A stretch of DNA of 64,000 nt from Chiloscyllium plagiosum. Taxonomy: Eukaryota. Location: positions 31,587,468 through 31,651,467 of the forward strand of contig NC_057719.1 in the NCBI RefSeq assembly GCF_004010195.1, read 5' to 3'. Under the pieces are notes generated by a model. The model made no database searches. It was not told the origin of the DNA and was given only the letters and a program-made list of their open reading frames with translations. Below are positions 6,761 to 60,480 of this stretch, piece after piece. Numbering within the stretch: position 1 is the first letter of the stretch; every line of letters begins with the position of its first letter. The position numbers and the translations under genes are program-made.

Positions 6761-6954
6761 GAGAAAGTGAGGTCTGCAGATGCTGGAGATCAGAGCTGAA
6801 AATGTGTTGCTGGAAAAGCGCAGCAGGTCAGGCAGCATCCATGGAACAGGAGAATCGACGTTCCTGAAGAAGGGCTTATGCCCAAAACGTCGATTCTCCT
6901 GTTCCCTGGATGCTGCCTGACCTGCTGCACTTTTCCAGCAACACATTTTCAGCT
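6761..6954 (+). mobile_element. Palindromic Penelope-derived mini-element with a hammerhead motif in the loop
   Basis: ~69-bp inverted repeat 6794-6862 / 6886-6954; loop CTGAAGA-A-GGGC-TTAT-GCCC-AAAA-CGTC; arms match the termini of the Penelope elements at 7525 and 57730. Confidence 0.8.
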
Positions 6955-7524
6955 AAGATTATCCTTGCTTGTTAACTTAAAGTGCTATGTCCTTTTCCTA
7001 ATATTTCTATTCATTCATGTGGGTATTTCTGGCTCAGTCAGTATTTATTGCCCATCTCTACTTGATCAACAGAAGGCTAGATTTTACTGTATAGTAAAAT
7101 GACTGCATAGTATCCAAGGTGGTGCACAATCACCAGCAAACATAATAGGTCTGACCTTCAGAGGAAGTGAAAGTCTTTGTGAAATAGCTGAAGGTGGTTA
7201 GGATATAGCACACCACCCGACAGAAATCCTGCAGTGATGTCCTGTTGCTGAAATGATTGACATTTAACCACCAGATCCATCTTCCTTTTTGGCTAGATAT
7301 AACTCCAATTGATTCCTAGCTTAATTAGGCAAAATTTGGACTTTATAGCTTGTACCAGATTACATTTTGATTTTGATCCGGTGCTGACAAACATTATCTT
7401 GGTTATGCTACTCCGTATTCTGAAGCCTTGTAATCCTGAATTCATTCTCTGCTCGGTCATTAAAATCAATGCATTGTTACCTGATCAGTGATACTCCTTT
7501 TAACATTGAATCCTTTGTCATAAA

Positions 7525-8840
7525 GAGTGGGTGCTGGAAAAGTACAGCTGGTCAGGGAGCATCTGAGGAGCAGAAGAGTTGATGTTTCTATTATAAGCTC
7601 TTAATCAGGAATGTGGAATGGAGGAAGAGGGCTGGGAATGCGATAGGTAGATGAAGGTGGGGGGTGATGGTGATAGGTCGGAGCAGATAGGTGGGAAGGA
7701 AGGTAGACAGCAGGACAGTTCAAGAGGGTGGTGCCGAGTTGGAGGGGTGGATCTGGGACACATTGATCCTGTGTGGTTGGAGGGTGCCAAGGCTGAAGAT
7801 GAGGCATTCTACCTCCAGATGTCAGGTGGCTAGAAATTGGTGGTGGAGGCTGGGGGTGAACTGTTCAACCACAGGGCAGTGGAGTTGTCTAGTGCGAGTG
7901 ACCCAGAGATTTCTCTGAAATGTTCCGCAAGTTGCCGTTCTGTCTCCACAATGTAGAGGAGACCATGGCGAGAGCAACAGACACTGTAGATGACGTATGT
8001 GGAGGTGCAGGAAAATCTGTCGGATGTGGAAGGAGGGGCCTTGGATGGAGGCATGGGCCAGTTTGACACCTCTTGTGGTGGTAAGGAAAGATGTTGGGAG
8101 TGGAGGGTGGGGTAGACCTAATAAGTGAGTCATGGAGGGAATGGTCTCGATGGAACCCAAATAGGGGTAGAGAAGGAAATATCTCTGTGGTGGTGGGGTC
8201 TGTTTGAAAAGGCAGGGGATGATGTGTTGTATCTGGAGGTTGGTGGGATGGAAGGTGAGGAGCTGGGGGGTGGGGTCTGTACTTCTTGCAATTGGAATGG
8301 TCAGGTTCAAGGCGGAGCGGTGGGAAGTGGAGGAGATGCACTAGAGGGCATCATTAACCATGTGGGAGGAGGTCACTGAAGGAGGTAGCCATCTGGGATG
8401 TTCTGTGGTGGAAATGGTCTTCCTGGCAGCTGATGTTGTGGAAACAGAGGAATTGGGAATAAGGGATATCATTTTTACAGGAGGCAGGGTGGAAGGAGGT
8501 GTAATCCAGGTAACTAGGAGTCAATGGGTTTGATTGTAGATGTCAGTGTTGAGTCGGTCACCAGAAATGGAGATGGAGAGGTACAGGAAGGGGAGGCAGG
8601 TGTCCGAGATGGTCCAGGTAAACTGGAGGTCATGGTGGAAGGTTTTGTGAAATTGATGAACTGTTCAACCTCTTTGAGGTGCTGCCAATACAGTCATCGA
8701 AGTAGCAGAGGAAAAAGTGGGGAATGGTGCCGGTGTAGCTGTGGAATATGGACTGTTGAGGCAGGCATAGCTGGGGCCCATGGCTACCTCTCTGGTCTGG
8801 AAGAAGTGAGGGGATTCGAAGGAGAAATCGTTGAGGGTTC
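7525..8840 (-). mobile_element. Penelope-like element (RT + GIY-YIG endonuclease), decayed
   Basis: ORF 7830-8069 FSCTSTYVIYSVCCSRHGLLYIVETERQLAEHFRE (GIY-YIG); ORF 8630-8842 YFDDCIG (RT); terminal repeat with degenerate hammerhead at ~7577-7610. Confidence 0.85.
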
Positions 8841-11800
8841 ATCCTTTGCTAATGAAATTTCCTACAAATACCTACCCTCTCATTGAAAAGAAAGCCATAA
8901 ATTAATTATTAATGTCTTTGCATTCCAACCCATTTTGGAATTTTGCCCGAACAGTTACAGCCCTTTGCTGTACATGGGTGAAGGGTCTTAAAGGTTTAGT
9001 ATGGAGGAGTGCCCAAAGCACCATTAGAATCTTGAATGAGTATGACATAACAGCTGGGTCTTCCTTATTGTGACTTCCACATCAATGAAACCTGTACTTA
9101 ATTGCCACTACAGAAACTACTCCTGTTCAATGCCTCTGAATTAGGAAGCACAGGTTCAAGTCTGTTCTGCTCCACAGGCATGACATAACATCTCTGAACT
9201 GATTGATTAAAAACTGTTTATAAGAGCCTCTTGTGTTAAACCAGTGAGTTTTCCTCTACTACACTAAAACAAACAGGTTCCCAGAGCCCTAAAGATGATT
9301 TGATTTGACTACATACATCATTCCTGTCCACCCGTAATATGCTTTGTATCTCTTTATAATGAAAGCAGTGCTTTAGAATACATGACAATTTCCATTCGTA
9401 CGCCATGCTTATGAACTGTATTCTGCATCTTTATTCTCTGCCCAACCAGAGAACAGGTGAGTTATTCACCATGCATTATTACCTCAGACAACACAATATC
9501 ACATGACTAAATCATTAATACAGTAGGTATACTTTGCTCTACATTTATTTACATAAATACAAAGATATAGGAAATCTATTAAAAACAGTATTTTTAAGAA
9601 CAATCTGGATTAATAGGTCCATTAGAGAAAGTTGACTTTTTAAACATGTGCTTGAAATGTAACAGTCCCCTCTGACCAATCAGAAGAATTTAAGTTTTCT
9701 AAATTGTTTGAGATTAAATGATAGCTTTGGAGGTATGGTCAAAACTTAAAACTAGTAGTTGGAATCATCACAGTTATGAAACAATTTTCAAGCAGTGCCA
9801 ATTTTTCTGCAGTCATTAAGCGATTAAATGTCAAGTCTTCGTGTCATGGTTGAGATTGGAATAAGGGCCTGCAATAGTTGACATTTCTTCTGCACATTTC
9901 TCTCAGACCAGTCATCAGCTCATATGGATGTTATAAAGTAAATTAATATTTCAAGTTAATTAATACTTCAAAAAAGCTGTCAGAAGAAAACATTTAATTT
10001 GTGATTAGGAACCTGGTACATGTAGTTAAGAATTTCTTGTCATCTATAGTTACTCAAAATAAACCCTTAAGTCAACACTGCTTGAAACTAAATAAAACTA
10101 AAACAGATGAATGCATCGTGATATGACTATTTGATCATGCATTCCTGTTATCAGCTCTCTGAAGTAATATTAGTTTTTCATTTATAACCAGAGGTGGAAA
10201 AAGATCTAGTTCTGTTTCTATTTCTAATCAGCAATTCTATTCAACAGATATTTTCTCTGCTCCCTTTTGAAGGTATCAAATAATCCCAGACCAGCATGCA
10301 TATTTTGAACATGTTATCAAGTTAACTAAGTTGCACATTTTTATATATGGACTCTGAACTGAGCAAGCTTGATTAGACAAGTGAGTTCAGAGTGCATAAT
10401 ACGAAGGAAACGTATTTATTTGACAGATGAAGTTTATATACACTAATTTAAAGTCTAGCTCTAAAATTTTAAGTCTTAATTTGTGTATTTTAATATGGAG
10501 CTTAGCAAAACCTAAATATAATACCTTTGAAAACTAATTTGAACTGCATTATTGTGCATTTGGATCATCAGAGTTCTTTAATAGCCAGAGGAAATATATA
10601 TAACTAGCCTTGAGAAACTTATGGCATTCTTTATTCACAATGTTAAAAAAAAATCAAAACCTTCTCCGTTTCCTATATCTCTCTGTGCTACTGGCAAGGT
10701 TAGACTCAATCACCTTTAATTCCACTCAGGAAATGATCATGGGAAGGCACAGCAGCAATCATCTTGTGGGCATTCTCATAGCATTTATTTGGTGCTGCTC
10801 TGAAAGTAACATGAAATAAACTGAGTGAGTGGAAAAGTGCTTATCTCGTGCTCTACCATTGTGAAACAGTATATTCAGGACTTATGTCATACTGGGCACG
10901 CCATGTTAATGGAAGTTATGCAGAGTGCAGCCTGTTCAAATTTCTCAGCCAGCAAATCATTTCAATAATCACCTCAAGTGCTTCCGTTTGATTTGCAGGA
11001 AATAGTAAGAAATTTATTAGCAGCCATAGGGCTCAGTTAACGTCCATCTTGAAGTGTTCAGCTTATTACAGCTTGTATGAAGGAACATTAGGTAAAAATA
11101 TGAAAACATAGTTTAATGACTTATTTTCCCCTGAAGAATGAATACAGAACTTCTAAGAAAATTGTTAGTCCATCTTCAATTCAACTAGTTTACTGTGGTA
11201 CTTGTTGCTTCCTTTGGAAATAGTTTCAGACTGCACTATGAAGAAATGCAAATTGTTTCTGTATTATACTTTGTGCTCTTAATTTACCCAAAAAAGAAAA
11301 TCCCTCACAGAATGGCCCAGTGGATGTGACATATATCGGCAGGCAACTTCTTCCACATAGGGCATTGACTGCATCCTCCACAAGCATCCATAACACACAA
11401 TTCCTCCATAAGCTGAATTCTTGCAGAATCATTGGGTAAAGAACAGGAGTGAATGGCCAGGCTAATTTCCCCCTTTTATAACCAAAGAATATTAAGATAA
11501 GGCTGTTACTGAGATAATTGCTTTCAGAATCCTGCTCAAAATGTTTCTCTCCCTTTATTAAATGTGAAAAAAGGGTCAAGCTGTGAAACCGCAGAAACCA
11601 CTCATCATATACTGGCTAGAGGCCTCCATTTTCTCAGACAGCATGAAAAATCCAAGCACATGTTTAGCACATTTAAAGAATGCTCAGGCAATAATCAAAA
11701 AACCATCATTGTAGACAACAGGAATTAAACATCGGCCAAGGAACTGTCAAGATTAAATTGAAATCAATACCATCTCATTTACAATACAAACTCATTACAA

Positions 11801-12014: not shown

Positions 12015-12115
12015 CTAATCAGTAACTGAAAAATAGTAATCTTCATCCTCTGTGTCATCTGATTGAGTATCTTCTCTACTCTTGAATACTGTTCCTATGT
12101 TAGACTTCTGTGCAC
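12015..12115 (-). CDS. MIS18BP1: MIS18BP1 last coding exon (stop TAG at 12015-12017)
   Basis: tttttcag acceptor; encodes (G)AQKSNIGTVFKSREDTQSDDTEDEDYYFSVTD*, matching human C-terminus ...SGIGKLF...EEEKDYYFSNSDSA. Confidence 0.9.
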
Positions 12116-12879
12116 CTGAAAAATATAGTCAAATTTCAAAAGCTATTGCAACTAGCAAAACATTACGTGTGTAGACCTGTACAACTATTAATCTGAGAGT
12201 CAAAGCCCAAGGCCTTACTTACCTGCAAGTTGGCGAGTCAGCAGACCTGTGTTTCAGCAGATGGGAGTGGGACAATACACATTGATTTGGATTTTATTGT
12301 CATGTGTACTTTACAGTAAGAATACAATAAAAAATGAAAAGTGATCATTCAGAGAAAGGTTTCAGGTCTTCAGTTTCTGCAAGTTGAACAGAAATTTTCA
12401 CTATCTCATACACAGGCAGCAGCTGGGAGTCAGTGCATGCCAAGTTAAAGAAGAAAATCAGTGGTGTTGCAGCAAAGTCATAAGCTGATGTTTGGTGAGT
12501 ATCTAGTGCAAGTGTCAATTTGCAAAGGGTAGGTTCTGGGAACCAGTTGGTTAATAAATTTACTATTTCAATTATATAGTCTGAAAGTAAGCTTAAGACA
12601 TGGCTGAATAGCTGAGCTGCATGGAATACTTAAACTGTATCATTTGGGGAGACATATGCCTAGACAATCACATGTCTCCAGTCGCAAAGCTTTGAGCTTC
12701 ACATTGTGAAACTTGGTCCCAGATTGGAGACACTGTGCTGCATCCAGAAAACGGACAATGATGGATTGCAGGTTTAACAAAGCAGTCACACCACAGATTA
12801 AGTGCATGTAATTGGAGGGGTAATGGGTAAGCTGTCTAATAAGACTAAGCTGGAAGTACAGGAGTTCTGACTCTGTTTA

Positions 12880-13330
12880 AAATTCAGTTGTGGAATGTGG
12901 GCTCTGCTGGCTGGCTAGCATTCATTGCCTATCTCTAATGGGCTTTGAGAAGTTGTTGTGCTGCCTTCTTGAACTGCTGTAAGTCCACGTGCTGTAGGTT
13001 GACCTACATTACCCTTCGGGAGGCAATTCCAGGATTTTGACCCAGTCACAGGTGAAGGAACGGTGATATATTCCCAAGTCTGGATGGTGAGTGGCTCGGA
13101 GGTAGTGTTTCCATGTATCTGCTGCCCTTGTCCTTCTAGATGGAAGTTGTGGTGGGTTTTCCCTAGATAGTGTCAAGCTTCTTGAGTGTTGTTGGAACTG
13201 CACCCATCCAGGCAACTGGATTCCATCACATTCCTGACTTTGTGCCTGGTAGATGGTTGACAGGCTTTGAGTAATCTGGAGATGGGTTACTCACAGCAGT
13301 ATTCATAGGCTCTGACCAGCTCTTGTAGCC
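12880..13330 (-). mobile_element. 3' end of the L2/CR1-clade LINE family that shares its tail with the tRNA-SINE
   Basis: Collinear with 2810-3050 (gctggctagcattcattgcct...ttccaggattttgacccag...). Confidence 0.65.
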
Positions 13331-13904
13331 TGTGACAATGCTATCACTTTAAAAAGGTTAATTTGTCCTGCATTTCATTTGAAGATAAGTTGTAAAGGCA
13401 GAGGTGCCCAAGTGTCAATGTTCAGAGGCCTTTGGGGTTTCTTTAAAACAGTTTAACATTGGAATGGGAGAAGCCAGTTCAGGCTTTCTAGTTATTTTCT
13501 GGTGCAATGGTCCCAACACGTTGGGGTCCCACAAAGCTTGCAAACTTCAATAACTGATTCTTAACGAGGGCTTTCCCTGAGATCTCTTTGTGTTGAGTTG
13601 TGAGTAAGCATCTGTGTTTGAATTTACATTTTTGCTGAGGGGTATGTTTATGGGATATTACTATATTGGAACAATTAATTAGTAATAGTTACTGTGTCTA
13701 GTATTTGGTTATGTTTTCCAATAGTTAAGTTATTCTAAAATCCACTTTTGCTTGTGTTTAAACTAATTGTGTTTTTAAAGTTGTATGGTTTGACCAGCTG
13801 TATCACATCTGGAACACCCATTTCACATCTACCCTTAAAATAAGAAAAGGGTAGGTGAGAGGTGACCTTAAAATATTTGAGGGGGTCTGACCTGGTCCAT
13901 AACA
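13331..13904 (+). mobile_element. LTR (TG...CA) of an LTR retroelement, followed by a primer-binding site
   Basis: Starts TGTGACA at 13331, ends ATAACA at 13904, immediately followed by a TGGGGGCTC-type PBS. Confidence 0.65.
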
Positions 13905-13907
13905 GAC

Positions 13908-13926
13908 TGGGGGCTCTCGTCAGGAT
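13908..13926 (+). other. Primer-binding site complementary to the tRNA-Pro 3' end
   Basis: TGGGGGCTCTCGTCAGGAT vs canonical PBS-Pro TGGGGGCTCGTCCGGGAT. Confidence 0.7.
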
Positions 13927-14029
13927 AATTCTACAATTCCAATTTGGGTTTAAGGTTGTCAGACTCAAAGGCAGCAAGTAAGTGTTAGAGTCTTTTGTTT
14001 CAGGTGTTGAATTTGGATGGTTTAAACAG

Positions 14030-15090
14030 GGTACAGGGGGAGCTAGCTATTTAGATACAGAACTGACTCAAAGGTAGAAGACAGGGTGGTGGTGGAGGGT
14101 TGCTTTTCAGACTGGAGGCCTGTGACCAGTGGTGTGCCACAAGGATTGGAGTTGGGTCCACTGCTTTTTGTCATTTATATAAATGATTTGGGTGTGAATA
14201 TAGGTACAGTTAGTAAGTTTGCAGATGACACCAAACTTGGAGGTGTATGGACAGTGAAGGTTACCTCAGATTACAATGGGATCTTGATCAGATGGAGTTT
14301 AATTTAGATAAATGTGAGGTGCTGCATTTTGGAAAAGCAAATCAGAGTAGGACTTATGCACTTAATGGCAAGGTCCTAGACAGTATTGCTGAATAGAGAC
14401 CTTGGAGTGCAGGTTCATGGTTCCTTGAAAGTTTAGTCGCAGGTAGACAGGTTAGTGAAGGTGGCAGTTGGTATGCTTTCCTTTATTGGTTAGAGTATTG
14501 AGTACAAGAGTTGGAAGGTCATGTTGCAGCTGTACAGGACATTGTATTCCAAAAGTGGCCTAACCAATGTTCAATTTTGGTCTCTCTGGTATAGGAAAGA
14601 TACCAGGGAGACCTAAATACCTAAAGTATTTTGTATAGTTTTGGTCTCCTTACCTAACAGAAACTATACTTTTCATAGAGGAAACATTTTTATATTTCTA
14701 GCTGCCTCACTGGGCTGATAACAGGGATGGGCAGGATTGTTTGAGGAGAGATTGGTTCGACTAAACCTGTATTCATTAGAGCTTAGAAGAATGAGAGGAG
14801 GGATCTGATTAAAACATATAAAATTGTAACAAGGCTAGATGGAGTAGATGCAGGGAGGTTGTTTTCCCTGGATGGGAAGTCTATAACTGTGAATCACAAT
14901 CTCAGGATACAGGATAGGCCATTTGGGACACAGATGAGGAATTCACATGCAGAAGGCTGTATCACTGAGTTTATTCCAGAAAGAGATTGATATGAAAGAC
15001 ATCAAGGATGGGGACAGGAAGCTGGAATATGACATTGAGATAGAGAATCAGACATGATCATTTTGAACGGCCTACCCTGTTCCAAATCTT
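14030..15090 (+). mobile_element. CR1 LINE fragments (two adjacent copies)
   Basis: ORF 14086-14307 SGVPQG...KFADDTK; second, older 3' fragment from ~14620. Confidence 0.85.
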
Positions 15091-15492
15091 TGTATCTTCC
15101 TAAGTTTCTATCTGTGATCCAGAGACCTGTTAAGCCACAGCTCCACCAACTTGCTTACTACCACTACCTTGTAATTGTAGTTTTCTTGAGTTCTACTTTC
15201 CCTCCCATTTCCTGATTTACAACTTTGTCTTATTTATATCCTCTGTGGTATCTACCAATGAAAAATAGCTGTTCGGTTCCTTTGCTATCTCATTACTTTC
15301 CATTATTAATTCTCCAGACATGCTTTCTGTAGAACCAACACATTTTCCTAATTCTTGATTTTTAATTATCCATAGAACAGTTTTTATATTTCTAGCAGCT
15401 CTTACACTGTAATTTTTCCTTGTTAACAATTTGCATATTCATGTGGGATTAAACAGGAGTTAAATAATTATTACTAGGTGTAGTTCTCTTAC

Positions 15493-15547
15493 CTTCAAAT
15501 AAATGTGATGATTTTGATCTAGCCGGTGACATACAAAATTCAGGTTT
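15493..15547 (-). CDS. MIS18BP1: MIS18BP1 penultimate coding exon, 55 nt
   Basis: ttattttag acceptor and gtaaga donor; encodes KPEFCMSPARSKSSHLFE(G); phase 0/1 fits both neighbours. Confidence 0.82.
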
Positions 15548-15636
15548 CTAAAATAAGAATAATTAGATCTCAAAGTATGAAAATATGAAACATTTTATAT
15601 TGATCATTTAAGTAATTAAAATCAATTGTTTCTTAC

Positions 15637-15715
15637 CGATCTTTTAGGGACCTTGGACCAATTCTTCATCTTGCTTTTTTTTTGCAGTTGAAAAACATAT
15701 TTATCATTATTAGCA
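15637..15715 (-). CDS. MIS18BP1: MIS18BP1 coding exon, 79 nt
   Basis: tttctttatatag acceptor and gtaaga donor; encodes ANNDKYVFQLQKKSKMKNWSKVPKRS, matching human RNDCDKYVFRMQK...WGNIKKK. Confidence 0.88.
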
Positions 15716-15952
15716 CTATATAAAGAAAAAAATAATTATTCCAGTAAGTTGTACAAAACTAAACTTCAGATGTATATGCAGAAGGAAAGCCCAGTGATGT
15801 TTCAGATTGTTACAAAAATTCTTGATCATGAATATTTAGAATTTGAAAATTTGCATTTATACTCCATAATTTCTGATTTGATTACAAATGTATCACTGCA
15901 AAGGTTAAGAATAGGTCACACAGACGTTTGGTTATGAAATACTGCAAGTAAA

Positions 15953-16311
15953 TGGGGAGGAGATGGCCTAGTGGTATTATTGTTGGAGATCCAGGGAATG
16001 TTTGGGCACATGGATTCGAATCCTGCCATGGCAGATAGTGGGATTTTATTCAATAAAAATCTGGAGTTAAGTGTCTAATGATGACCATATCGATTATTGG
16101 TAAAGCCATGAGTCTATTGTCGACTGTTGGGAAAACCCAGCTCCTTCACTAATGGTCTTTAAAAAAGAAAGCTGTCATCCTTACCTAGTCCGGCCTATAT
16201 GTGACTCCAGACCCAGAGTATTGTGGTTGACTGCCCTTTGGGCATTTAGGAAAAGGCATTCAATGCTGGCCTAGCCAGCAACACCCTTATCCTGTGGATG
16301 AATAAAAAAAA
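15953..16311 (+). mobile_element. tRNA-derived SINE (head + LINE-like tail)
   Basis: A-box-like TGGCCTAGTGG, B-box-like GGATTCGAATCC; tail caatgctggcctagccagc...aataaaaaaaaa. Confidence 0.75.
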
Positions 16312-16332
16312 AGGAGGATATTTGCCAGCATG

Positions 16333-16695
16333 AGGAGATGTTGGCACAATGATAATGTCACTGTAATAGTCACACATAGAACCAAGATCTGGAGCATAGA
16401 TTCAAATCTCACCATTGCACAAGGTAGAATTTAAATTCAGTTTAAAAAAATCTGGAATTGAACTGTAACTATTAAACTATCAACTTTTGTAAAAACCCAT
16501 CTGGTTCACTACTGTCCTCCAGAGAAGGGAAGTTTTCATTCCTATCTGGGCTGTGACTCCAGAACAAAGCAATGTAATTGACTTTTAATTACTCTCAACT
16601 TGCTACAAATTAGCTACTTTATTTAAGGACAATAGATAGACAATAAATAATGGCCCAGTGAGTAATGCCCACATCCCATAAAAGAACAAAAAAAG
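16333..16695 (+). mobile_element. Second tandem copy of the same tRNA-derived SINE
   Basis: Collinear with 15953-16311 (aaacccatctggttcact, gtgactccaga, A-rich end). Confidence 0.7.
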
Positions 16696-16892
16696 AACAA
16701 CCATCTTTAGTTGTTTCATCAATTACCTCCCCTCCATGGAGGTATTTGGTGTCTGCACAATGTACCATTCCTCACAACTCAAACGCTGAAGCAGCCCGTA
16801 ACTATTTGCTGCAAGACCTTGACAACATTCAGGTGTGGGCTGATAAGTAACATGCAATGTTCACATCACAAATGCCAGGCAATGACTATCTT

Positions 16893-17392
16893 NNNNNNNN
16901 NNNNNNNNNNNNNNNNNNNNNNNNNNNNNNNNNNNNNNNNNNNNNNNNNNNNNNNNNNNNNNNNNNNNNNNNNNNNNNNNNNNNNNNNNNNNNNNNNNNN
17001 NNNNNNNNNNNNNNNNNNNNNNNNNNNNNNNNNNNNNNNNNNNNNNNNNNNNNNNNNNNNNNNNNNNNNNNNNNNNNNNNNNNNNNNNNNNNNNNNNNNN
17101 NNNNNNNNNNNNNNNNNNNNNNNNNNNNNNNNNNNNNNNNNNNNNNNNNNNNNNNNNNNNNNNNNNNNNNNNNNNNNNNNNNNNNNNNNNNNNNNNNNNN
17201 NNNNNNNNNNNNNNNNNNNNNNNNNNNNNNNNNNNNNNNNNNNNNNNNNNNNNNNNNNNNNNNNNNNNNNNNNNNNNNNNNNNNNNNNNNNNNNNNNNNN
17301 NNNNNNNNNNNNNNNNNNNNNNNNNNNNNNNNNNNNNNNNNNNNNNNNNNNNNNNNNNNNNNNNNNNNNNNNNNNNNNNNNNNNNNNNNNNN
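16893..17392. other. Assembly gap (500 N)
   Basis: Run of N. Confidence 1.
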
Positions 17393-17424
17393 ATTCCAAT
17401 GTATTTTTCTGCTGCACTTTCTTC
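17393..17424 (-). CDS. MIS18BP1: MIS18BP1 coding exon start, truncated by the gap
   Basis: cactttcacttcag acceptor; phase 2 continues the previous exon as (R)KKVQQKNTLE..., basic like the post-SANTA segment; runs into N. Confidence 0.6.
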
Positions 17425-18305
17425 CTGAAGTGAAAGTGTTCAATTATTCTTGGCAATAACATAATCAAAACATAAGTACAGAACAATCTTGAAATACAGC
17501 CATCTTGACAGTTAGCAACTCTGAACAAAAGCATCTCGAAAAACTGTAAATTAGAACAGAGGGTCACCGTCTCCAGCAAGATTGTGTGTGCCAAAGCTGT
17601 AAAGGTTGCCATATAACTCCGAATGATTGCTAACAGCTTCAAGGTTCCTTTTTTAAAAAAAATGATTGAAATACCCTAAGTGAACAATGTTTTATGCATT
17701 CAACTTACAACAGATATTCTCGTAAAGTTTCAATTGGTGCATAAAGATGAAAGCCAAATTTTTTGGGAGTTAGCTTGCGTTGTACATAATTTTATGCTTT
17801 CTCAGGTCCTTACTGAGATGGCACAAACTTGAAAAAGTATACGATTGGTCCTGAAAATGTTACACTTACTGGAAATTAGTGCTCCATTAACATGGTATTT
17901 AATGTACTCCTAGCAGTTCCTTTTAAAATTAATTCACTTTATTGTTATGGCCTTGGAATCTGTTACAATGTGCAGAATGGGGGAAGTGATATTAAAGATA
18001 TTTCAGAACCTTCTTTAAATAGTCTTATTTTTGACAAAGGAAAATTACTGAACTCATGTCTAGTCTGAGCGCTGGGAGGATATTTCTCAGCGATTTTTCA
18101 ATATTTACCAAATACACATGAAGCAACAGACAATAAAAATGACAATTGCATTGGGTTGCAAGGAATGTGACTGAGATAATGAGCAATATATTCTGTAAAG
18201 ATTGTTTCCTTAAAAGTCTTCGTAACCCAACTTGATAATCTTGGACTAGACCATAGCAATTTAAATCAACACCAACTACAGTATAGAAAAGGAAGACTGA
18301 CATAC

Positions 18306-18390
18306 CTCCTTTTAAAGAATTCTTCAATATACTCCTTCCAATCCAATGGAAAACCCAGAAAAAAATGTTTTAAAATGGAATTAGAGAATC
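18306..18390 (-). CDS. MIS18BP1: MIS18BP1 SANTA domain exon (C-terminal part), 85 nt
   Basis: Encodes (G)FSNSILKHFFLGFPLDWKEYIEEFFKR, matching human [26 protein letters not shown]; cag / gtatgt. Confidence 0.93.
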
Positions 18391-18679
18391 CTGTTTCAAA
18401 GAAAAAACACAGTTAAAAGGAATAAATCTAACCGCATTTTTTTCATTGTCATTTAAGTTGACAAGGAAATATTATAGACAAAGGGCTAATCAAGGGTTGA
18501 AAGGAGAAAGGGAATAAAATATACCATTGCTGGAATTAAGCGTGTTGACATTTTTCATATTTAAGTATATAAAGTATTTAGTCACCAATCTGAATTGGCA
18601 TATATTAATTTATAAATTGTAATATAGGCAGACTAAGAGAGTCTCCTCACTATGAACTAGACCTCATAGCTCAAAGACG

Positions 18680-19560
18680 GGGCTGAATCAAACTTATTTT
18701 GGCTAAGTTCAAGTTGCACAAGTTTTTTGGAAGGTTTGGTGAGAACGTTTTCTTACTGCATCTTACCAAACTCACTGTATTAACTACTTACTCCACCCTA
18801 ATGATATTTCTCAAGTCCAATTTTGCTGCATCATTCCACATTCTGCGCCCAAAATAGCTTACCCCTCAACAGATAACAACCAAAACACTGGCACCCCTTG
18901 CATGTGCACCTTCTTTAAAATGTTTCTGTGCATCTGGATGAGCATTTGTATTCTGAAACTTCCCTGTCAGGGACCTGGAGGTCCTGAGGGGATGGGGTGG
19001 TGCAAAGGAAAGGAGTGCTATTCTTGAAAACTGGCAAAAAATGCCATGCTACTAGACCATGTCAATGTTGTCGGAGGTCATCACCCATGTAGGTACCACT
19101 TCCCGGGTGTGGAGGAACATCCAGCCATGCAGAAAGAACGTCAATTGCTTCTCTGCTCCACCATGTTAAGTACCACACTCTGGTCTCTGCTATCTCACAT
19201 TTGGGTGCTCTCTCTCTGCCATTTCCCCAATTCTCATTGCCACTCTGCCACTCTCACTATTTCACGCTTCCTTCTTTCCACACCTCTCTCACTGTCACCC
19301 ACCCCATTCAACCCTCCACACCACTAATGCTGCATGCCCTACAAGTTGCCTCCTCAATCTCTTGGAACCTCACACCAGCTTTCTCCCACATGCAACAGCC
19401 CTAACAACGATGCCACTCATTGCTATCTCAATCATCACCCCACACGCCCCATTTCTGTCATTACAGTGGCATTGATAGATGACTTTCTGAAGACAATCAA
19501 GAGATAAACCTATGTACTGTCAAATGACACATCTTCAAAGCTGCTGAAGTAATTGGGCTA
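18680..19560 (+). mobile_element. Probable PIF/Harbinger transposon relic with a decayed Myb/SANT-like gene
   Basis: Frameshifted pieces at ~18970-19150 read DLEVL...GVVQRKGVLF...CRKNVN, resembling Harbinger Myb/SANT (NAIF1/MSANTD-like) proteins. Confidence 0.45.
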
Positions 19561-19669
19561 GTTTGTTATTTTTTCTTTTTTTAAAATGTACCCGTTTACC
19601 ATGTTTATTTGTATATCTTGTGTGTGAATGGGGCTGAAAACAAAAGTATGACTAAACAAAACAAAAAAA

Positions 19670-19800
19670 AAATCAAAGAACTGCAAATGCTGGAAGTCAG
19701 TTAGTTCTGAGGAAGAGTTATTGAACCTGCAATGTTTAGTCTGCTTTCTCTTCACAGATGCTGCCAGACTTGCTGAATGTTTCCAGCATTTTTTGTTTTG
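19670..19800 (+). mobile_element. Penelope-terminal-repeat-derived fragment with degenerate hammerhead
   Basis: ctgaggaagagtta...cacagatgctgccagacttgctg; same family as 38165-38400 and 1178-1240. Confidence 0.6.
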
Positions 19801-20407
19801 TTTATGAAAAAGGGTTACTGGGTTTAAATCAAACATTAATTAGATTAACTTATTGTTTCACCTTGCTCTGCTGTAGTCGATTATTCACAACATCTAGTTC
19901 TGGTTATTCAAAAAGTCAGGCTCAGAATTAGTGGGGTCAATTTTAAGCATCACTGAGTATTCTACTTTTACAGTTAAAGGCTGATTTGATTTGGCTGTCT
20001 GTCTCCATATTGTAAGAACATGCATACATTTCTGGTGTCACCATAATAAATTTCCTCTGTACCGTCTCCAGTATGTCTGGATCTTTTTTTAATAATATGG
20101 CAACCAAAACTGTATGCTGCATTTAGATCTAACACTACTTGCCTACTTTTCATTTCATTCCCAACTAAAGTTTTGTGTTTGCCTTTCTTCAGTATTCTTT
20201 CTTAAATCTGGGCAATATAATAAGTGATGTTTCTAATCTTCCTATTCATATTGAACTCTAATTGCAAATTATTTAACCACTTTACAAGCTTACTAATGTT
20301 CCAGCAATGACCCTTTTAGAACACCACTTCTTATTTTCTGCCACTTGAATAACAAACCTGCATGCAGTCTCTGCTTTTTGCCTTAACTTAGTTATTAGTC
20401 TACTTAC

Positions 20408-20538
20408 CCTGGTTTTTCATTGCAACATAATCCAAAGGTCCTTTCAGAACATAAATTGAACCAGTGATAGATTTCACTTCAGTTTGTTTAATTCGTTCAG
20501 CAATTACATTACTATGCCAGTATATTCCATCAGTATCT
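20408..20538 (-). CDS. MIS18BP1: MIS18BP1 SANTA domain exon, 131 nt
   Basis: Encodes [43 protein letters not shown](G), matching human [29 protein letters not shown]; cag / gtaagt. Confidence 0.96.
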
Positions 20539-22592
20539 CTGTTTGGGAACACATACATAGTGTTTTAATATCCAGTTGAAGAACCTAAAAATATAGTTCC
20601 AGATACATTGTACAAATTAACCAACTATGAATCCATTCCCAATTCTGACACAAGCTCATTGACCTAAAATACCTTTTAGGAGGAGTACCAAGCCCACCCA
20701 TTTTGTCTTTTAATTGGTCACCTCCTTATTGATTTTTTTTTCGAACACTTCATGACAGAGAGCATGTAGCACTGTCAGGTCAGTGGCTCCACCAGGAGGC
20801 GTGGATGCTGTTATTGGATGCAGAAGAAGTCAAGCATGTCTCAAGCGAGTAGTGCTCTTGGTTGTTTGCATTTAGGTCCTCAAATAAAGCCTGAAGCTAG
20901 CAGGACAATTGAAATAGTGGGGCAACATCTACACCAGAGTTGTAATCTTTTGTGGTTCTGGTCTTTCATTTCAACAAACATATTATTGAGGCACGGAGTT
21001 CCCGTCTCTGATAACCACCCAACATGCCACCAGGAGGTTACCTTAATAGAACTGCAATATCTGCATACAGCAGGAGTCAGGCTAAATGGAGGGAAAATAT
21101 CAATGCCATTGTAAAATTGCTCCCAAATGAGATCTTAAGTGTCCTAACTAATTGCTTGCTTTTGTGGAGAAGGCAGCTGACGCAATTCCTAAGTTGCTCC
21201 TGCAATGTGTCACTAGGAGATGAAATGCAATAGGGAGCTGTCTTGTCTCCTAATTTGCATCTTTCTCCAACCTTTTCTCTATGGAAGCAACAAAAATTAA
21301 CCAGGTAACTGTCTCTCCTTAGCGCCACACTCAGTCGAATGTAGCTTTGATGTTACCTCACGTCTGGAATTTAACATTTTTGTTTGAACCAAGGCTGTAA
21401 TGAGGTCAGAATTAAATTGGCTGAAGACTGGCACCTGTATTTCTAGGGACCACTGGAGAAGGCAGAGATGACACGTCTGGCTAAAAATTACTGCAAGTGC
21501 TTCAGCCTTATCTTTTGCACTGATGTATTGGGCTCTTCAATCGTGGAGATTGGGGATATTTATGGAGCCTCATCCTGTAGAGAGTTGTTTCATTGTTATC
21601 ACCATTCACCACTGAATATGAAAGGACTTTAGAGCTTAGATATAACCCATTCTTTGTGGGGTCACTTCATTCTGTCTAGCAATTTCTGCAAATAGTCCTG
21701 TTTGGTAGCTTCACCAGGCTGACAGCTCACTTTTAGGCACACCTAGTGCTGCTACTGGCATTCCTTCCTACCTCTGTAGGGAAAAAAAATGGACATCCAA
21801 ATAAGTTTCAGATATAACTATTGTGTTTCTTGTGAAGGAACATTGAAGAAATGGGAACAATTCTGAGGAAATTCCTTGTCAGTGTTTTTTTCTGACACAG
21901 CTCCTTCAGTTTCTTTAAATGAAATAATTATTCTAATTTTACCTGTATTTTACTGTACAATTATTTGAGTGTTTTTGCCTAGAAAGTAAAAACATGCAAC
22001 CATTTGCTCATCTTTATTAATGTCTAACTTCGCCACACAAATAAATCAGAGTTCTTAAATTTAATGTGAAAGCAACATTAACTCATTGTAACAGGAGGAA
22101 CATCAAAATTATATCACTACCCTGGATTAGGGGAAACTGGCCACACCACCTGGTGCTGATTAATAACAATAATCACTGTCTCTTGGAGGTCCACTAAATT
22201 ATTTTGATTTGAACAACTTGTTGACAATATTTACGCTCTCGCATAGAACGGTTACAGCACAGAACGGGGCCATTAGCCCAATGCGTTTGTGCTTGCAAGA
22301 GCAAATTCAGCTTATCCCACTATCATACTCTTTCCCTATAGCCCTACATATTTTCATCTTCAGGTGTTTATCAAATTAAAGCCTGATTGTAACCACTTTG
22401 ACCATCTTCTCTCAGAATCTGCCTTCCAGATCCCAACCACTTGGCTAAAAATGTTTTGCACATTATCAATAGTTCATGAAAAGCAGTAAGCCACTTCAGG
22501 ATGAGGGGGTTAAAAATGGCAATAGGACAAGAAAACAGGAAAAGTATTCTTTAAAGATTTCTTTCTCTATTTTTTAAACGTAAAGAGATTAC

Positions 22593-22669
22593 CTTTTTCC
22601 TTCTACACAAATCTCATTGCTGCCTTTTATCTGTTGGATGATCCATTTGGTGAGAGTAATCCTTTTTTC
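22593..22669 (-). CDS. MIS18BP1: MIS18BP1 SANTA domain first exon, 77 nt
   Basis: Encodes EKRITLTKWIIQQIKGSNEICVEGK(R), matching human [22 protein letters not shown]; cag / gtaatc. Confidence 0.94.
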
Positions 22670-23009
22670 CTGCATATTTAAAACAAAAGAGTGATACAAA
22701 GTTAAATAATCTATGACAAAAATATTTGTCAACAAGATAATAATAATTGCTAAATATTGAAGTTATTCAGAGCTTAAAAGATTTCTCTAAAAACCTAACC
22801 AGTATTATCCATTGACCATCTGCTGCTGGTGGGCTGACATCTCAATTATTTAAATCCTAGATATTGTAGGTTACTAGTTAGTTAATGTCCGTTTCTAGTA
22901 CTGCTCTTATTGAATAGTGTTGCCATCCTAAAACCTCCTGATGATTTATACACAAAGACTGATTTCAGAAAACCTGGGAGAATATTGAAATAGGTACCAA
23001 TTGTGGTGT

Positions 23010-23350
23010 GAAATTTATTTTTGTGTTGGTGTTGCTGGCTAAACCAGCATTTATTGCCCATCCCCAATTGTTCAGAAGGCAGTTAAGAGCTAACCACATT
23101 GCTGGGTCTGGAGTCACATGAAGGCCAGACCAGGTAAGGACAACAGTTTCATTCCTTAAGGAACATTAGCGAATCTGGGGTTTTTCCAACAATCAATAAT
23201 GATCATCATAAAATCCTAATTCCAAATTTTTATTGAATTCAAATTTCACTGTTTGCCCCATTGCAGGTTTCAAATTCAGACTCCCAGAACATTATCTGGA
23301 TTTCAAGATTAATAGTCTAGCAGTAATACCATGGGGCCATTCTTTCCCCT
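23010..23350 (-). mobile_element. tRNA-derived SINE (same family as 15953)
   Basis: Reverse-complement match including the tail ccagcatttattgcccatccc. Confidence 0.75.
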
Positions 23351-23789
23351 AATGTTGAATTATGCTCATTATAAACAGAGACTTTGTCTTCCCTATTCAT
23401 AAGTAACTTTTAAATTATGCTTATTTGCATATCACCCATCTTTGATGCAAACTACTCACCATCATAACCCTACTCCCTCTGAATTTATTTTGAAAGATTC
23501 GCCTTTAAGATTACACATACTATTTGAATAGCTAATTTTCTTTTTGGATTCTAGTATTAAAATGGAAACTTTAACTCACATGCAATGAAGGTGCTGTTAA
23601 ACTTTTAGTAATGTGAGGTTAATAAAAACTGTAACTCCAAGCAATCTAACGAGGGAATCAAAGATTATTTGAGGTAGGTGAAAATGTGGTGTTGAGGTTA
23701 CAGTCGTATCAGCTATGGAGACATAGAAAATAGGAGTAGGCATTCAGCCCTTCATGACAACTCCGCCATTCAATATAACCAAATTAAGG

Positions 23790-40039: not shown

Positions 40040-40607
40040 CTGAAAATGTGTTTTCTATTACACGTCCATTCACAGATGCAACAGCCCCATTCAAACCACA
40101 AGTTCTTTTTTGGGGAGTTCGAAGATGGTGATTTTCAGGGATATGAAGATGGTCACCGTGAAGTTTAGCTTTCATTTTTTGGAACATTTTAGCAGGACTC
40201 TCACAGACTATTTGCTTGACCAACGTAGATTCAATAGGATTTAAATCAGATTTGACATGACTCTGGCTTACTTTCACACTTGTTGGATCAGAATCTATTA
40301 TATCACTGATTTCAGGAGGAATTACATGAAACGTTCCCTCATTTTCCAGGGCTGTGGATTGAAGTTGATGAATTACTTGAGGATTTTTCTTAGCTTTTAA
40401 TGAGATAATAGGGAATGTGTCTGGAGGTTTCAGATTGGTATTCTCCCTTTGGATACTTGTTGAAATACATGGGAGTTTATGTAAGTCTTTTAATGGAGTA
40501 CCGTTTGGAATCTGATGAAGAGGTACTGATTTCCAGGTTGTTTTCTGTTCTCTGTCCATTTCAGTGTTGTTGAAAATGTTCTTCTTGGATGGAGTAACAG
40601 ACACCAT
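40040..40607 (-). CDS. MIS18BP1: MIS18BP1 (Mis18-binding protein 1/KNL2) first coding exon, 568 nt coding
   Basis: tttttttcag acceptor 1 nt before the ATG; MVSVTPSKK...IPNGTPLKDLHK...ESPAKMFQKMKAK matches human MIATPLKH...IPSGTLTPVKDLVK...ESPGKIFLRMKEK; gtatga donor. Confidence 0.92.
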
Positions 40608-45910: not shown

Positions 45911-46239
45911 ATGTTTTTCTTTGTTAAACAGCTGTAGAAATTATTACAATCCATTTTTATATTTCTGGCAAGCTTGTCTTTCATCATTAGATTTCTTCCT
46001 CTTGATTAATTTCAATCATTTTCTCTGGCCTTCTTTACAATTAGCCCAATCACTTTGACACAATTATGTGCATTTTCCTCAAGCCTGATGCTTTCCTTAG
46101 CTTATTTAATAAATAATAGATGGTAGGTCCTCTCTTGAAGCTTCCTCTCACTAGAAATATATTCATTTTATATGTATTTGTATATATTTATTCTGAATAT
46201 TCTGAAATACCCCTGCAAATTCAATGTTTGTGTAAAGAT

Positions 46240-46735
46240 TTGTAGCTTAGGTGCCTGTTGTCGTGGTTGTGGGTATGATTGCCGAGCTGGGAAGTTGATT
46301 TGCAGACATTTCGTCCCCTGTTTAGGTGATATCTTCAGTGCTTTGGAACCTCCTGTGTCTTCTGGAATTTATTTGGTTCCGTTTCTGTTGCTGTGTTTGT
46401 TGTGGCCACTATATTGAGTCTAGGTCAACGTGCTTGTCCGTGGCTGAGTGCCATGCTTTTAGAAATTCTCTGGCTGTCCTCTGTTTAACTGGTCCTCAGC
46501 CACAGGTCTCCATCAACAAGCACTTTGACCTAGACCCAATATACCAGCCACTATAACAAACAACCAGAACTGGCAACTGGAAACAGCGGAAACAGAACCA
46601 AATAAATTCCAGAAGACACAGTACAGCAGTGCTTCACAGAAGACTCCAAAGCACTGAAGACATCACTTAGACAAGGGATGAAACATCTGTAAATATACCT
46701 CCCAGCTCGGTCAACATACCCACAACCACTATCCC
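46240..46735. mobile_element. Penelope 3' ends arranged as an inverted pair, each with a hammerhead motif
   Basis: 46264-46388 mirrors 46586-46728; + strand ends INKHFDLDPIYQPL*; - strand QRTAREFLKAWH (GIY-YIG C-terminus); cores at 46332-46338(-) and 46654-46660(+). Confidence 0.8.
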
Positions 46736-49524: not shown

Positions 49525-49560
49525 CACTAACTTTCGAAGCACAACTCCTTCATCAGGTGG
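49525..49560 (-). ncRNA. Minimal type I hammerhead ribozyme motif
   Basis: CCAC-CUGAUGA-A-GGAG-UUGUG-CUUC-GAAA-GU-UA-GUG: both core boxes intact, stem I CAC/GUG. Confidence 0.65.
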
Positions 49561-49576: not shown

Positions 49577-49612
49577 CCACCTGAAGAAGGAGCAGCGCCC
49601 CGAAAGCTAGTG
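49577..49612 (+). ncRNA. Minimal type I hammerhead ribozyme motif
   Basis: CCAC-CUGAAGA-A-GGAGC-AGC-GCCCC-GAAA-GC-UA-GUG: core intact, palindromic AGCU stem III, one stem II mismatch. Confidence 0.7.
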
Positions 49613-57729: not shown

Positions 57730-58215
57730 CCAGGTGAAAGTGGGTACTGCAGATGCTGGAGATTAGAGTTAAGATTAGAATGGTTCTGGAAAAGCAGAGC
57801 AGGTCAGGCAGCATCCGAGGAGCAGGAAAATTGACGTTTTGGGCAAAAGCCCTTCATCAGGAATGAGGAAGGTTGGAATGGAGTAAGGTGGGGTGGGGTG
57901 GGAGATGAGGAAACTGGTGAAGTCCATATTGATCCCATGGGGTTGAAGGGTCCTGAGGCGGAAAATGAGGCATTCTTTCTCCAAGCGTCGGATGCTAAGG
58001 ATAGTGGCGATGGAGGCGATCCAGGACCTGGATGTCCTCAGCAGAGTGGGAGTTGAAATTTTTGGCCACAGGGCGATTGGGTTGATTGGTACGCATGTCC
58101 CGGAGATGTTCTCTGAAGCGCTCTGCGAGTAGGTGTCCAGTCTCCCCAGTGTAAACGAGACCGCATCGGGAGCAACGGATACAATAAATGATACGTGTGG
58201 AAGTGCAAATATAGG
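57730..58215 (-). mobile_element. Penelope 3' fragment (GIY-YIG endonuclease + terminal repeat with hammerhead motif)
   Basis: ORF 57995-58219 IIYCIRCSRCGLVYTGETGHLLAERFREH; ORF 57775-57984 LIFRLRTLQPHGIN; CTGATGA-A-GGGC-TTTT-GCCC-AAAA-CGTC at 57833-57860. Confidence 0.9.
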
Positions 58216-59149
58216 ACATTCAGGTCATCAAATCTGCTACACCATTCAATTCAATCATAGCAGTGACAAACCTCAGCTCAACTCAGCTGTATATTCTCCA
58301 TAACCCTTAAATGCCTGACTGATTAAAAATGTCCATCTCAGCCTTCAATATAACCCAACATCAACAGGCTTCTGTGGTAAAGAATTCCACAGATTTATAA
58401 CCCTCAAGAAATTCCTTCCCATCTACATCTTAAATGTAAAACCCTTTATTCTCAGATTGTGTCCTCTGGTCCTAGACTGTCCCGCAAAGAGAAACAAACC
58501 TTTCCATATCTCCCTATCAAGTCCTTGAAGAATCTTGTACATTTCCAGAAGGTCACATTTTTAATAAAGGCAAACAATCCATTTGCTTTCTCTTTAACCC
58601 AATGCACTTGAGATTAGCTTTTTGGGATTCATGCACGAGAACACCAAATTCCTCCACTGCAGCTTTTTGTGGTAGTTCCCAAATTAAATATTACTCAACT
58701 CCTCCATTCACACTGTCACGATGCATCACTTCACATTTTTCCATGTCATATTCCATGTCAAGTTTCTGTCCGCTCACTCAACTTGTCTAATTCACTCTGT
58801 AACTGTTACCCTCCTCTTTGTGTCAACTTCAAACTTGGCAGTAATTAATTAATATCATCCAAACATATAGTAAATAACTCTGGACCCAGTACTTATCCCT
58901 GCAGTCCTCCAATAGCCTCCTGTATCCCAACAGGAGTTCATTAAAGAAAACATAACACCTACCCCTGCTTTTAATTCAATTGGCTCCTTTCTGAACTATT
59001 AACATGCTTCTGAGAGTGTAATTCAACATGATACCCCGGCTGTGGTGAAATTAACGCTTTCTTTTATTATCCTATGACCGTACGAGCTACACGTCAACAA
59101 AATATTGTTCAAGGATCCATGCTGAGGCACAGTTAATGCCAGTCTTTCA

Positions 59150-60480
59150 TTAAGTAGATAAACAGGGGGCTGAATGAACACAGCAAGCCAGGCAGCATCA
59201 GGAGGTGGAGAAGTCAACAGTTGGATATAACCCTTCTTCGGGAATGGAAGCGGCGATAAGGGGAGCTGCAGATAAAGAGGGGGTAGAGATGGGAAGGGTA
59301 ATGGTCGGGTGAGGAGTGAAATGGTGAGGTAGTAATAGGAATATGGGTGGTGGGTACAACAGGTTGATTGATGGGAGGGTATCTGGTTGGTATGTAGAAG
59401 GAAGGGCCGGTAGGAGGAATAGAAGGCATGAAGCAGGGCTGAAAAAGGAGTTAGGGGATGGGAAGGACGATTATTTGAAATTGGAGAATTCAACATTAAG
59501 TCCTCCAGGCTGTAAGCTGCCCAGGCATAAGATAAGGTGTTGCTCCTCCAATTTGCAGTCTGATTCGCTGTGGCATGGGAGGAAGCCGTAGTTGGACATG
59601 TCAGAGAGGGAGTGGGAAGGTGAATTGAATGGGCGGTGACCAGGTGGTCAGGCTGGCCCTTACAGTCCCAGCTGAGATGCTTGGCAAAACATTCCCTTAG
59701 TTTATGTTTAGTTTCACCTTTTTAGAGAGGACCATATCGGGAACTCTCCAAAACCACACCCTACCTCCTACTTGATCACAACCCCACCACGATCCATCAA
59801 GCCACTGTCACCCACATTGTTCGTGTCCTCATTGCCTCTAGTGATCTCCTCTCCACTGCCTCAAACTTCAATCCCACAGGTGCGCACTGCCCGTTTCTAC
59901 TTACTCTCCAAGCCCAACTACCCAGCCAACCCATGGCCTTTGCATGGTCCTGCCCCACCGAACTCATTTCTTCCTACCTCGACTCCATTCTCTCCCCCTT
60001 GGTCTAGGCACTTCCACCTACATTTGGGAAACCAACCAAATTCTCCAACTTTTCAGAAACTTCCAGTTCCCCAGTCCCAAGCACTTCATCTTCACTATGG
60101 ACGTGCAGTCCTTACACACATTCATTCCCCACAATGATGGCCTGTTGACCCTCAGTTTCTTGCTGTCCAACAGACCCATCCAGTCCCCTTCCACCAATAC
60201 CCTCCTCTGCCTCACCAAATTAGTCCTCACCATCAATAATTTTTCCTTCATTTCTTCCCATTTCCTCCAAATCCAGGGGCACTCGCACAGGTCCCAGCTA
60301 CACCTGCCTCTTTGTTGGCTACGTCAAAGTCAGTCTTCAATACATACAGAGATACCGTTCCCTAATTCTTCCCTTATTACATGGATGACTGCATTGGTGC
60401 TGCATCCTGCATCCAGGCTGAACTGAAGCAGTTCATCGAATTTGCCAACAACTTCCACCCGACCCTTAACTTCACTTGGT
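59150..60480. mobile_element. Penelope element: minus-strand 3' end (59150-59745) abutting a plus-strand RT segment (59745-60480)
   Basis: ORF 59944-60426 FTMDVQSLHTFIPH...LVLTINNFSF; YMDDCIG at ~60378; terminal repeat at 59150-59245. Confidence 0.8.

Follow-up and report, generated by a model that had tools for sequence, protein, structure and literature searches.

Decayed minimal hammerhead ribozymes of Penelope-like elements in a 64-kb window of the Chiloscyllium plagiosum genome

A stretch of 64,000 nucleotides from the shark Chiloscyllium plagiosum (contig NC_057719.1, positions 31,587,468 to 31,651,467, forward strand; hereafter the window, which means the whole of this stretch) contains a recurrent motif resembling the hammerhead ribozyme. 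A first-pass annotation, made from the letters alone, had listed 13 such sites and read them as a large ribozyme repertoire carried by at least four Penelope-linked families. This raises the question of whether the motifs are indeed hammerheads, from which elements they derive and whether any of them still functions. The evidence argues strongly that they are minimal type I hammerheads from the pseudo-long terminal repeat (pLTR) of endonuclease-positive Penelope-like elements (PLEs), now present as decayed copies. The PLE minimal hammerhead class is already known, and the cartilaginous-fish families are an addition to the known set. Judging from their sequences and predicted folds, the copies in the window appear to be fossils rather than working ribozymes.

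All 13 sites were located within a few bases of their listed coordinates, and homology places every one of them in a repeat family with common tails of 60–140 nt. Each has the layout CUGANGA, one spare base, stem II, GAAA, two bases and U-H. The exact CTGANGA claimed for the set holds at nine sites; the remaining four (7608, 24908, 31925 and 59241, heads being named here by the position of C3) carry one substitution each. All core bases (CTGANGA, GAAA, U-H) are kept at five sites, 38680, 46338, 46654, 49556 and 49581, and the others have one to three changes. The 10.1–11.1 pair is G-C at seven of the 13, G-T at two or three and something else at the rest, the departures being mostly CpG transitions; both family D copies have A at 10.1. 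The palindrome of stem III, which has no loop 3, reads ACGT at 6864 and 57860, AGCT at 31925 and 49581 and ATAT at 38315, and is one change off elsewhere. The stem I arms pair and differ by family (TC/GA in A, AGTT/AAC/TT in B, CAC/GTG in C, GCA/TGC in D), over 3 bp in C and D, 4 bp at 38315 and 2 bp plus a mismatch in A, where decay of N1.1 has broken the stem in most copies. Only the plus-strand copy 49581 combines the core, G10.1–C11.1, a Watson–Crick palindrome and a 3-bp stem I, with one mismatch in stem II.

The heads fall into four groups, A (with a variant, A2), B, C and D (Table 1). A homology search added a 14th head outside the original list, the decayed family B copy 38296 on the minus strand, giving a density of 14 heads in 64 kb. 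Four further arms consist of tail only (about 6759–6862, 31846–31909, 1176–1241 and a short one directly before 19707, the last read by eye). The A and B tails are alike (about 76–87% over 30–64 nt), so that A and B are probably one lineage, and comparison of tails finds C and D unrelated to A/B and to each other. Stem II varies between families while remaining paired, as the first-pass annotation had observed, and the stem sequences that it named are correct.

Such a motif might in principle have arisen by chance within repeat sequence, without selection acting on its structure. Consistent with this, 38 of the 47 CTGANGA matches in the window lie away from the listed sites (nine lie at them), an Rfam scan of the window returned five matches at E ≤ 5 with no hammerhead family among them, and seven of the 13 sites fail every descriptor and rest on homology, six passing some descriptor set. 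On the other hand, a strict descriptor gave three matches in the window and none in 12 of 12 block-wise dinucleotide shuffles. With one core mismatch allowed and a 4-bp stem II there were four matches against a shuffled mean of 0.08, and with one core mismatch and three of four stem II pairs six matches against a mean of 0.83 and a maximum of 2. The frequency of the motif is therefore above that of shuffled sequence, in line with the original expectation. Furthermore, unrelated tails (A/B, C and D) share the core, the spacing, the palindrome and stems that are paired but different, and a freely varying stem I covaries in loci from outside the window. A chance origin is thus extremely improbable.

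These outside loci come from metagenome contigs scanned with a pattern that fixes the core and three stem II pairs and leaves stem I free. The scan gave at least 123 loci, with 69 distinct heads among the 127 matches listed, and none of the at least 123 loci shows similarity to the window tails at E 1e-6. Within the 69 heads stem I is paired in 80.8% of cells, with double-sided changes at all four pairs, and the whole structure is paired at 88.4% versus 14–48% when slid, a level reached in none of 500 shuffles; these covariation figures are inflated by related sequences. Among the matches listed, the short flanks of 35 of the 123 loci contain PLE-like protein matches. A covariance model trained solely on the outside heads recovers 6864 (E about 2e-8) and 57860 (E about 7e-8), while five more listed sites score E 0.5–9 amid chance-level matches and six of the 13 are absent from its 26 rows. 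The weak scores of the other sites can be attributed to the fixed stem II and to decay of the copies.

The connection to PLEs is made by protein remnants. Reverse transcriptase (RT) and GIY-YIG remnants lie upstream of four heads, 7608 and 57860 in family A, 59241 in A2 and 24908 in C, which bears out the earlier remark that several copies sit at the 3′ end of such remnants. A tblastn search with P0001, a shark RT/GIY-YIG protein, and 150 of its relatives identified six stretches in the window, four on the minus and two on the plus strand, and the end of each minus-strand body is followed within 570 nt by a head on that strand. P0001 is 72% identical to the piece preceding head 57860. Applied to 12 translated pieces, Pfam reported GIY-YIG only for 57998–58219 and RVT_1 for one CR1-like piece; the remaining PLE pieces were missed by Pfam and recovered by tblastn with homologues. 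A decayed Cys-rich linker, intact in P0001, is present in the 7608 and 24908 bodies, and the long bodies of 24908 and 59241 both carry inversions. Family B is connected to the set through its tail homology. In the family C element a CA-rich stretch of about 570 nt (24940–25475 on the minus strand, 26920–27440 on the plus strand) separates the end of the open reading frame (ORF) from the hammerhead, against about 100–240 nt in family A. No direct tandem pLTR–ORF–pLTR unit, full or tandem, occurs in the window, as expected of truncated copies; this lowers the prospect of an active element here and leaves the origin unaffected.

The layout equals the published consensus of the minimal hammerhead ribozymes of metazoan PLEs, of which about 4,000 copies are reported in coelacanth and about 9,000 in Xenopus (Cervera and de la Pena 2014, PMC4209133), and the earlier assignment to PLE-type minimal type I hammerheads is upheld. 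The motif class, its link to PLEs, its abundance in fish, coelacanth and frog and its opposite-strand pairs are all on record (PMC4209133; review PMC6765202; comparisons with these and the other papers cited refer to their accessible parts). The published and present motifs share the core, the spare base, G10.1–C11.1, the palindromic 15.2–16.2 without loop 3 and a short stem I, and both occur as several families per genome, mostly as solo copies, with opposite-strand pairs 100–700 bp apart. Stem II is shorter in window families A to C, at 4–5 bp (PMC4209133). The accessible part of the alignment in PMC4209133 contains no cartilaginous fish, and shark, Callorhinchus, Leucoraja and Squalus were not found in the searchable part of its supplement. 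Our literature search found no paper on shark PLE hammerheads, which may be listed in the subscription papers, Repbase/Dfam and some supplements that lay outside it; one paper combines shark, Penelope and hammerhead ribozyme, with "shark" denoting a shape only. Matches to the family A pattern in viral contigs numbered zero. The gain for annotation is the addition of cartilaginous-fish families, at high density and invisible to Rfam, to the PLE minimal hammerhead set.

With regard to clade, PLE insertion anatomy, inverted truncated copies and the Neptune clade have been described by Craig et al. (2021, PMC8557442). The window bodies resemble Neptune elements in their C-terminal GIY-YIG after RT, their Cys-rich linker (in the 7608 and 24908 bodies and in homologues) and their 5′ truncation. 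The linker, CX2-5CxxC between RT and endonuclease, is found in both Neptune and Nematis (PMC8557442) and by itself fits either. The inverted truncated copy and the tail of 30–40 bp at one end only are likewise features common to the published anatomy and the window.

Five short insertions in the window consist of two arms in inverted orientation, and at 19707 the inverted part is a short distal tail. In every two-armed case (6864, 31925, 38315, 46338/46654 and 49556/49581) one arm is about 35–50 nt longer at its 3′ end. Direct repeats surround four of the six short inverted insertions tested, one of them weakly. The insertion at 6759–6953 is flanked by a 14-nt repeat with one mismatch (6745, 6954) and that at 31846–32046 by a 12-nt repeat with one mismatch (31834, 32047), neither equalled in 400 control zone pairs; 38167–38393 has a 16-nt repeat with two mismatches (38151, 38394; 1 of 400 controls as high), and 46221–46729 a weak 13-nt repeat with two mismatches (46208, 46730; 12 of 400). 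The arms within 6759–6953 and within 31846–32046 share private variants (97% and 95% alike, respectively), and in both insertions the antisense arm halts at the base of stem II, where the GAAA box lies; together this suggests one template or fold-back, with a stall at the hairpin. At 38296–38315, the junction of the two B heads, a 10-nt palindrome is built from both stem I 5′ arms. Outside the window, loci L038, L045, L102 and L113 are two-headed, with two intact heads 19–31 nt apart on both strands at the centre of the locus, which indicates that this anatomy is general. The junction of locus L077 falls at stem I and retains one arm of that stem.

The copies bear a characteristic pattern of decay. 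GAAA has changed to AAAA after a C at five of the 13 sites (6864, 24908, 38315, 57860 and 59241) and the other CpG transition, C11.1 to T, is seen at three, the C11.1–G12 step thus reading CG at four, CA at five, TG at three and something else at one. In A, B and D, two of nine palindromes retain their CpG. By hand count, bases of the first CpG are changed in 9 of 26 cases against 7 of 130 for other core bases (Fisher p 1.4e-4), two of the seven non-CpG changes being assigned to the 59241 deletion. Public contigs (X1, X10) and RNA reads (X21) were mapped to 57700–58240, and 40 of 122 difference rows were used. A search of sequencing runs with 28500–33500 gave no RNA run among the matches listed. 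At position 12 of family A, G makes up 70% of the summed contig depth in X1 and 65% in X10, and 1303 of 1584 X21 RNA reads (82%) also carry it, so that the A in the window copy is derived, and N1.1 is G in 77–88% of the family A data, which restores the first stem I pair. The G12A change is CpG decay, as the first-pass annotation had proposed. G12 is the general base of the hammerhead (PMC6155905), and G12A copies should therefore be dead. The catalytic G12 lies in an obligate CpG, so that copies are prone to self-inactivation after insertion where the genome is methylated.

Several results weigh against the reading of the motifs as decayed PLE hammerheads. The independent covariance model scores just two of the 13 sites clearly, and the covariation statistics belong to non-window loci, that within the window being confined to differences between four groups. 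The choice of sites by their intact-looking CTGANGA biases the CpG test upward, and about two thirds of family A depth retains G at position 12. No significant target-site duplication (TSD) is present at 19707 (29 of 400 controls as high) or at 49556/49581 (115 of 400). The window tblastn search placed no PLE body next to any B head. The peptide upstream of the D heads found no homologue at E ≤ 10 in a weak search with one candidate, and none of the 151 tblastn queries matches it; it may resemble a Poseidon-type C-terminus, and D may belong to another clade. Of the four or more Penelope-linked families originally proposed, A, A2 and C are thus tied to PLEs by ORF remnants, B is tied by its tail to A, and for D the weak search gave no ORF link.

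How such copies would arise can be outlined from the literature and the tail anatomy. In an active element the 4-nt stem III palindrome (ACGU or AGCU) would bring two motifs together as a pair, and cleavage would take place after H17, probably assisted by the protein of the element. Target-primed reverse transcription would begin in the tail, about 60–140 nt downstream of the hammerhead, and run back through it (PMC11167929 and the tail anatomy both point this way). Most cDNAs would be short and two would often be joined head to head, yielding the inverted TSD-flanked micro-insertions with one longer tail that are observed. After insertion the copies decay neutrally, the C11.1–G12 step (and the A/B/D palindrome) mutating fastest because these are CpGs. 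The longer 3′ tail is the PLE tail, which Frangieh et al. (2024, PMC11167929) relate to two sites at which reverse transcription starts. In the Anolis Poseidon element PAc, as here, a hammerhead stands just upstream of a tail with two end points and the targets are AT-rich; nicking of both strands would explain the two-headed copies. Most arms in the window run through the cut site, as expected of uncleaved templates. PAc is active and its protein-assisted cleavage has been demonstrated, whereas the window holds decayed fragments only. A conserved ATG in the A/B tails (e.g. 6757–6840 on the minus strand, 38360–38400 on the plus strand) opens a short frame about 20 nt past the cut site and in family B directly follows a pyrimidine run plus AG; it may be an ORF start, the PAc ORF also beginning near its hammerhead, or a splice acceptor.

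The 5′ ends of the copies invite a different account, in which the head-plus-tail units are non-autonomous SINE-like (short interspersed element-like) or retrozyme-like families, copied as units rather than left behind by PLE truncation. Eight of the 14 heads have at most about 11 nt of sequence before C3 and six carry at least 150 nt, with none between, the short starts having been judged against a body-bearing copy in five cases and by mutual divergence for the three B heads; four further arms stop short of C3. Family A depth drops about 128-fold above 57870, and in X1 the tail exceeds the best GIY-YIG bin about 10-fold in depth, although a variable pyrimidine-rich stretch confounds the drop and summed depth does not equal copy number. 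Loose ends at 57863–57864 give a low-agreement AT-rich consensus, as for varied flanks, and G-rich natural continuations are also found. A recent preprint derives animal retrozymes from PLE pLTRs, describing non-LTR retrozymes with PLE-derived type I hammerheads in one chondrichthyan genome (Li et al., bioRxiv 10.64898/2026.07.22.740005). Retrozymes are, however, tandem repeats in which each unit has a hammerhead, whereas the window copies are solo or inverted and no tandem head repeats were found in the window. Junctions also vary among the two-headed copies. Copying as units is accordingly quite unlikely, and the preferred origin remains truncation of PLEs. The end-point pattern would fit reverse transcription that starts at the 5′-most tail and runs off a nearby RNA 5′ end, or stalls at structure.

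A rather unlikely extension of PLE truncation is that the two-headed insertions record both 5′ ends of PLE RNA, one arm being a cDNA run-off at the cut site and the other at the natural start just 5′ of stem I. Among the best 15 of 123 joints, ten are strand switches, of which nine link 57815–57831 with 57860–57870 (38 contigs in X1, 31 in X10 and one RNA read); some joints were left uncounted, and contigs may share insertions and are not independent. Arms ending at the cut would clip to 57831 or 57827, because the window copy mismatches at 57832 and 57828, and in three rows (57831 to 57863, 57865 and 57867; 25 contigs) both stem I arms are partly preserved, which run-off from cleaved RNA would predict. 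The PAc paper found no RNA ends at the cut site in its accessible part, whereas the family A joints here may cluster there. Against this extension, the top joint, 57827 to 57865, has precisely the register expected of a stem I fold-back, and the joints are reported with neither inserted letters nor orientation. None of the six inverted insertions in the window ends at the cut, 6864 ending 6 nt past it, 31925 8 nt past it and the others further or far short. Of 23 outside inverted-arm loci, among which L038 and L113 appear to represent a single insertion, 17 extend across the whole head, five stop well short and one ends within 2 nt of the cut. Were it true, these insertions would be genomic evidence that PLE minimal hammerheads cut in the germline. 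In a genome with very many short two-headed copies, the end points of the cDNAs could be tallied cleanly relative to the cut site.

The suggestion of a large ribozyme repertoire could be taken to mean that the copies work and matter to the host, for instance by cutting MIS18BP1 pre-mRNA. Six heads lie in introns of this gene, family A heads occur in RNA reads, 82% of them with G12, and family A contig matches are very many (86,865 and 74,882), so that dimers in trans are conceivable. Nevertheless, the three heads in sense to MIS18BP1, 24908 (intronic), 38296 and 38680, are all broken; 19707 lies in an intron antisense to the gene. The 3285 mapped X21 reads cover the two strands about equally deeply and their ends do not pile up, in a poly(A) single-cell library that is poor for detecting cleavage; run X22 gave no mapped reads. 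All five two-headed transcripts are predicted to fold into long hairpins (−79 to −147 kcal/mol) that pair the cut site, and for eight of eight heads the double-hammerhead dimer lies 9–23 kcal/mol above the best dimer fold, in a model that has no tertiary terms and builds the D stems without bulges. In published work the activity of minimal hammerheads is low even as dimers (PMC4209133) or depends on the element protein (PMC11167929). Dimers in cis from opposite-strand pairs were also considered and ruled out, as one partner is antisense. The closest heads on the same strand, 57860 and 59241, are 1381 nt apart with a CR1-like piece between them and are both G12A, other same-strand pairs being 17–31 kb apart. 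A working repertoire is therefore very unlikely; the original wording was an overstatement, since nearly all copies are mutated and opposite-strand pairs bury the cut site.

Table 1. Hammerhead heads, PLE remnants, two-headed insertions and the host gene in the window
Feature	Coordinates	Strand	Remarks
Head A	6864..6891 (C3 to H17)	+	G12A; 4-bp stem II; ACGT palindrome intact; covariance model E 2e-8
Head A	7581..7608	-	G8 changed; stem II lost; palindrome CpG decayed
Head B	19707..19736	+	A13 changed; both CpGs decayed; antisense distal-tail arm just upstream
Head C	24880..24908	-	U4 changed; G12A
Head C	31925..31953	+	A6 changed, rest intact: 5-bp stem II, AGCT palindrome, 3-bp stem I
Head B (14th)	38265..38296 (approximate limits)	-	Heavily decayed
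Head B	38315..38344	+	G12A; stems I and II 4 bp each
Head A with full tail	38653..38680	-	Core bases intact; stem II and palindrome broken; homology begins at C3
Head D	46305..46338	-	Core intact; 10.1 to A; palindrome CpG decayed
Head D	46654..46687	+	Core intact; 10.1 and 11.1 changed; palindrome broken
Head C	49528..49556	-	Core intact; G-U pairs in stem II and palindrome
Head C, best-preserved copy	49581..49609	+	One stem II mismatch; head-to-head with 49556
Head A	57833..57860	-	G12A; N1.1 G>A; predicted cut between 57833 and 57832; E 7e-8
Head A2	59215..59241 (approximate limits)	-	U4 changed; G12A; small deletion
Family B tail	1176..1241	+	Begins in stem II 3′ arm; adjoins CR1-like 3′ end; without CTGANGA
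PLE ORF remnant (RT end, Cys linker, GIY-YIG region)	7726..8868	-	Upstream of head 7608; E 3e-31, 119/151 queries
PLE ORF remnant (RT, Cys linker, GIY-YIG)	25475..26762	-	Ends 567 nt upstream of head 24908; E 1e-45, 140/151 queries
Inverted 5′-truncated arm of 24908 element (ORF end and 3′ untranslated region)	26752..27440	+	Halts before hammerhead; tblastn stretch 26752–26919
GIY-YIG remnant and pyrimidine-rich 3′ untranslated region	57863..58270	-	Upstream of head 57860; PF01541 E 6.9e-5, above cut-off
PLE remnant, internally inverted	59477..60491	.	GIY-YIG end 59477–59742 (-); RT piece 59719–60491 (+)
Two-headed family A insertion	6759..6953	.	Antisense tail arm about 6759–6862; sense head with shorter tail
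Two-headed family C insertion	31846..32046	.	Antisense arm begins at GAAA box; sense head with longer tail
Two-headed family B insertion	38167..38393	.	Heads 38296 (-) and 38315 (+)
Two-headed family D insertion	46221..46729	.	About 150 nt upstream of head in each arm
MIS18BP1	12018..40607	-	Span of nine mapped coding pieces; six heads in introns

The host gene was recognised from an exon at 40026–40619 on the minus strand, which is 97% identical to MIS18-binding protein 1 of Chiloscyllium punctatum and less so to that of other sharks. The window has a G+C content of 39% and one run of 500 N, at 16893–17392. Residues of about 509–1359 of P0002, the closest MIS18BP1 protein, map nowhere in the window and would be expected across the gap region 15675–18305; the gap thus probably hides many exons, or the assembly collapsed there.

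Some minor features accompany these elements. A pair of CTGATGA matches at 55204 and 55224 (plus strand, 55204–55250) was rejected as a further head; it is a 20-nt tandem duplication with no GAAA box at the right distance. A weak 5S rRNA-like match at 47462–47563 on the plus strand (26.9 bits against a family threshold of 38) is perhaps a 5S-derived repeat remnant. The segments 44479–44558 and 47889–47968 form an inverted pair, 78% complementary, with similar 3′ ends at 37907, 48122 and 54498 and a short tandem tail; they have the look of a tRNA-like SINE head and may be SINEs. Finally, CR1-like fragments of long interspersed elements lie at 49–1171, 14027–14544, 41037–42179, 55519–57301 and 60624–63449, one piece matching RVT_1 at E 5e-14.

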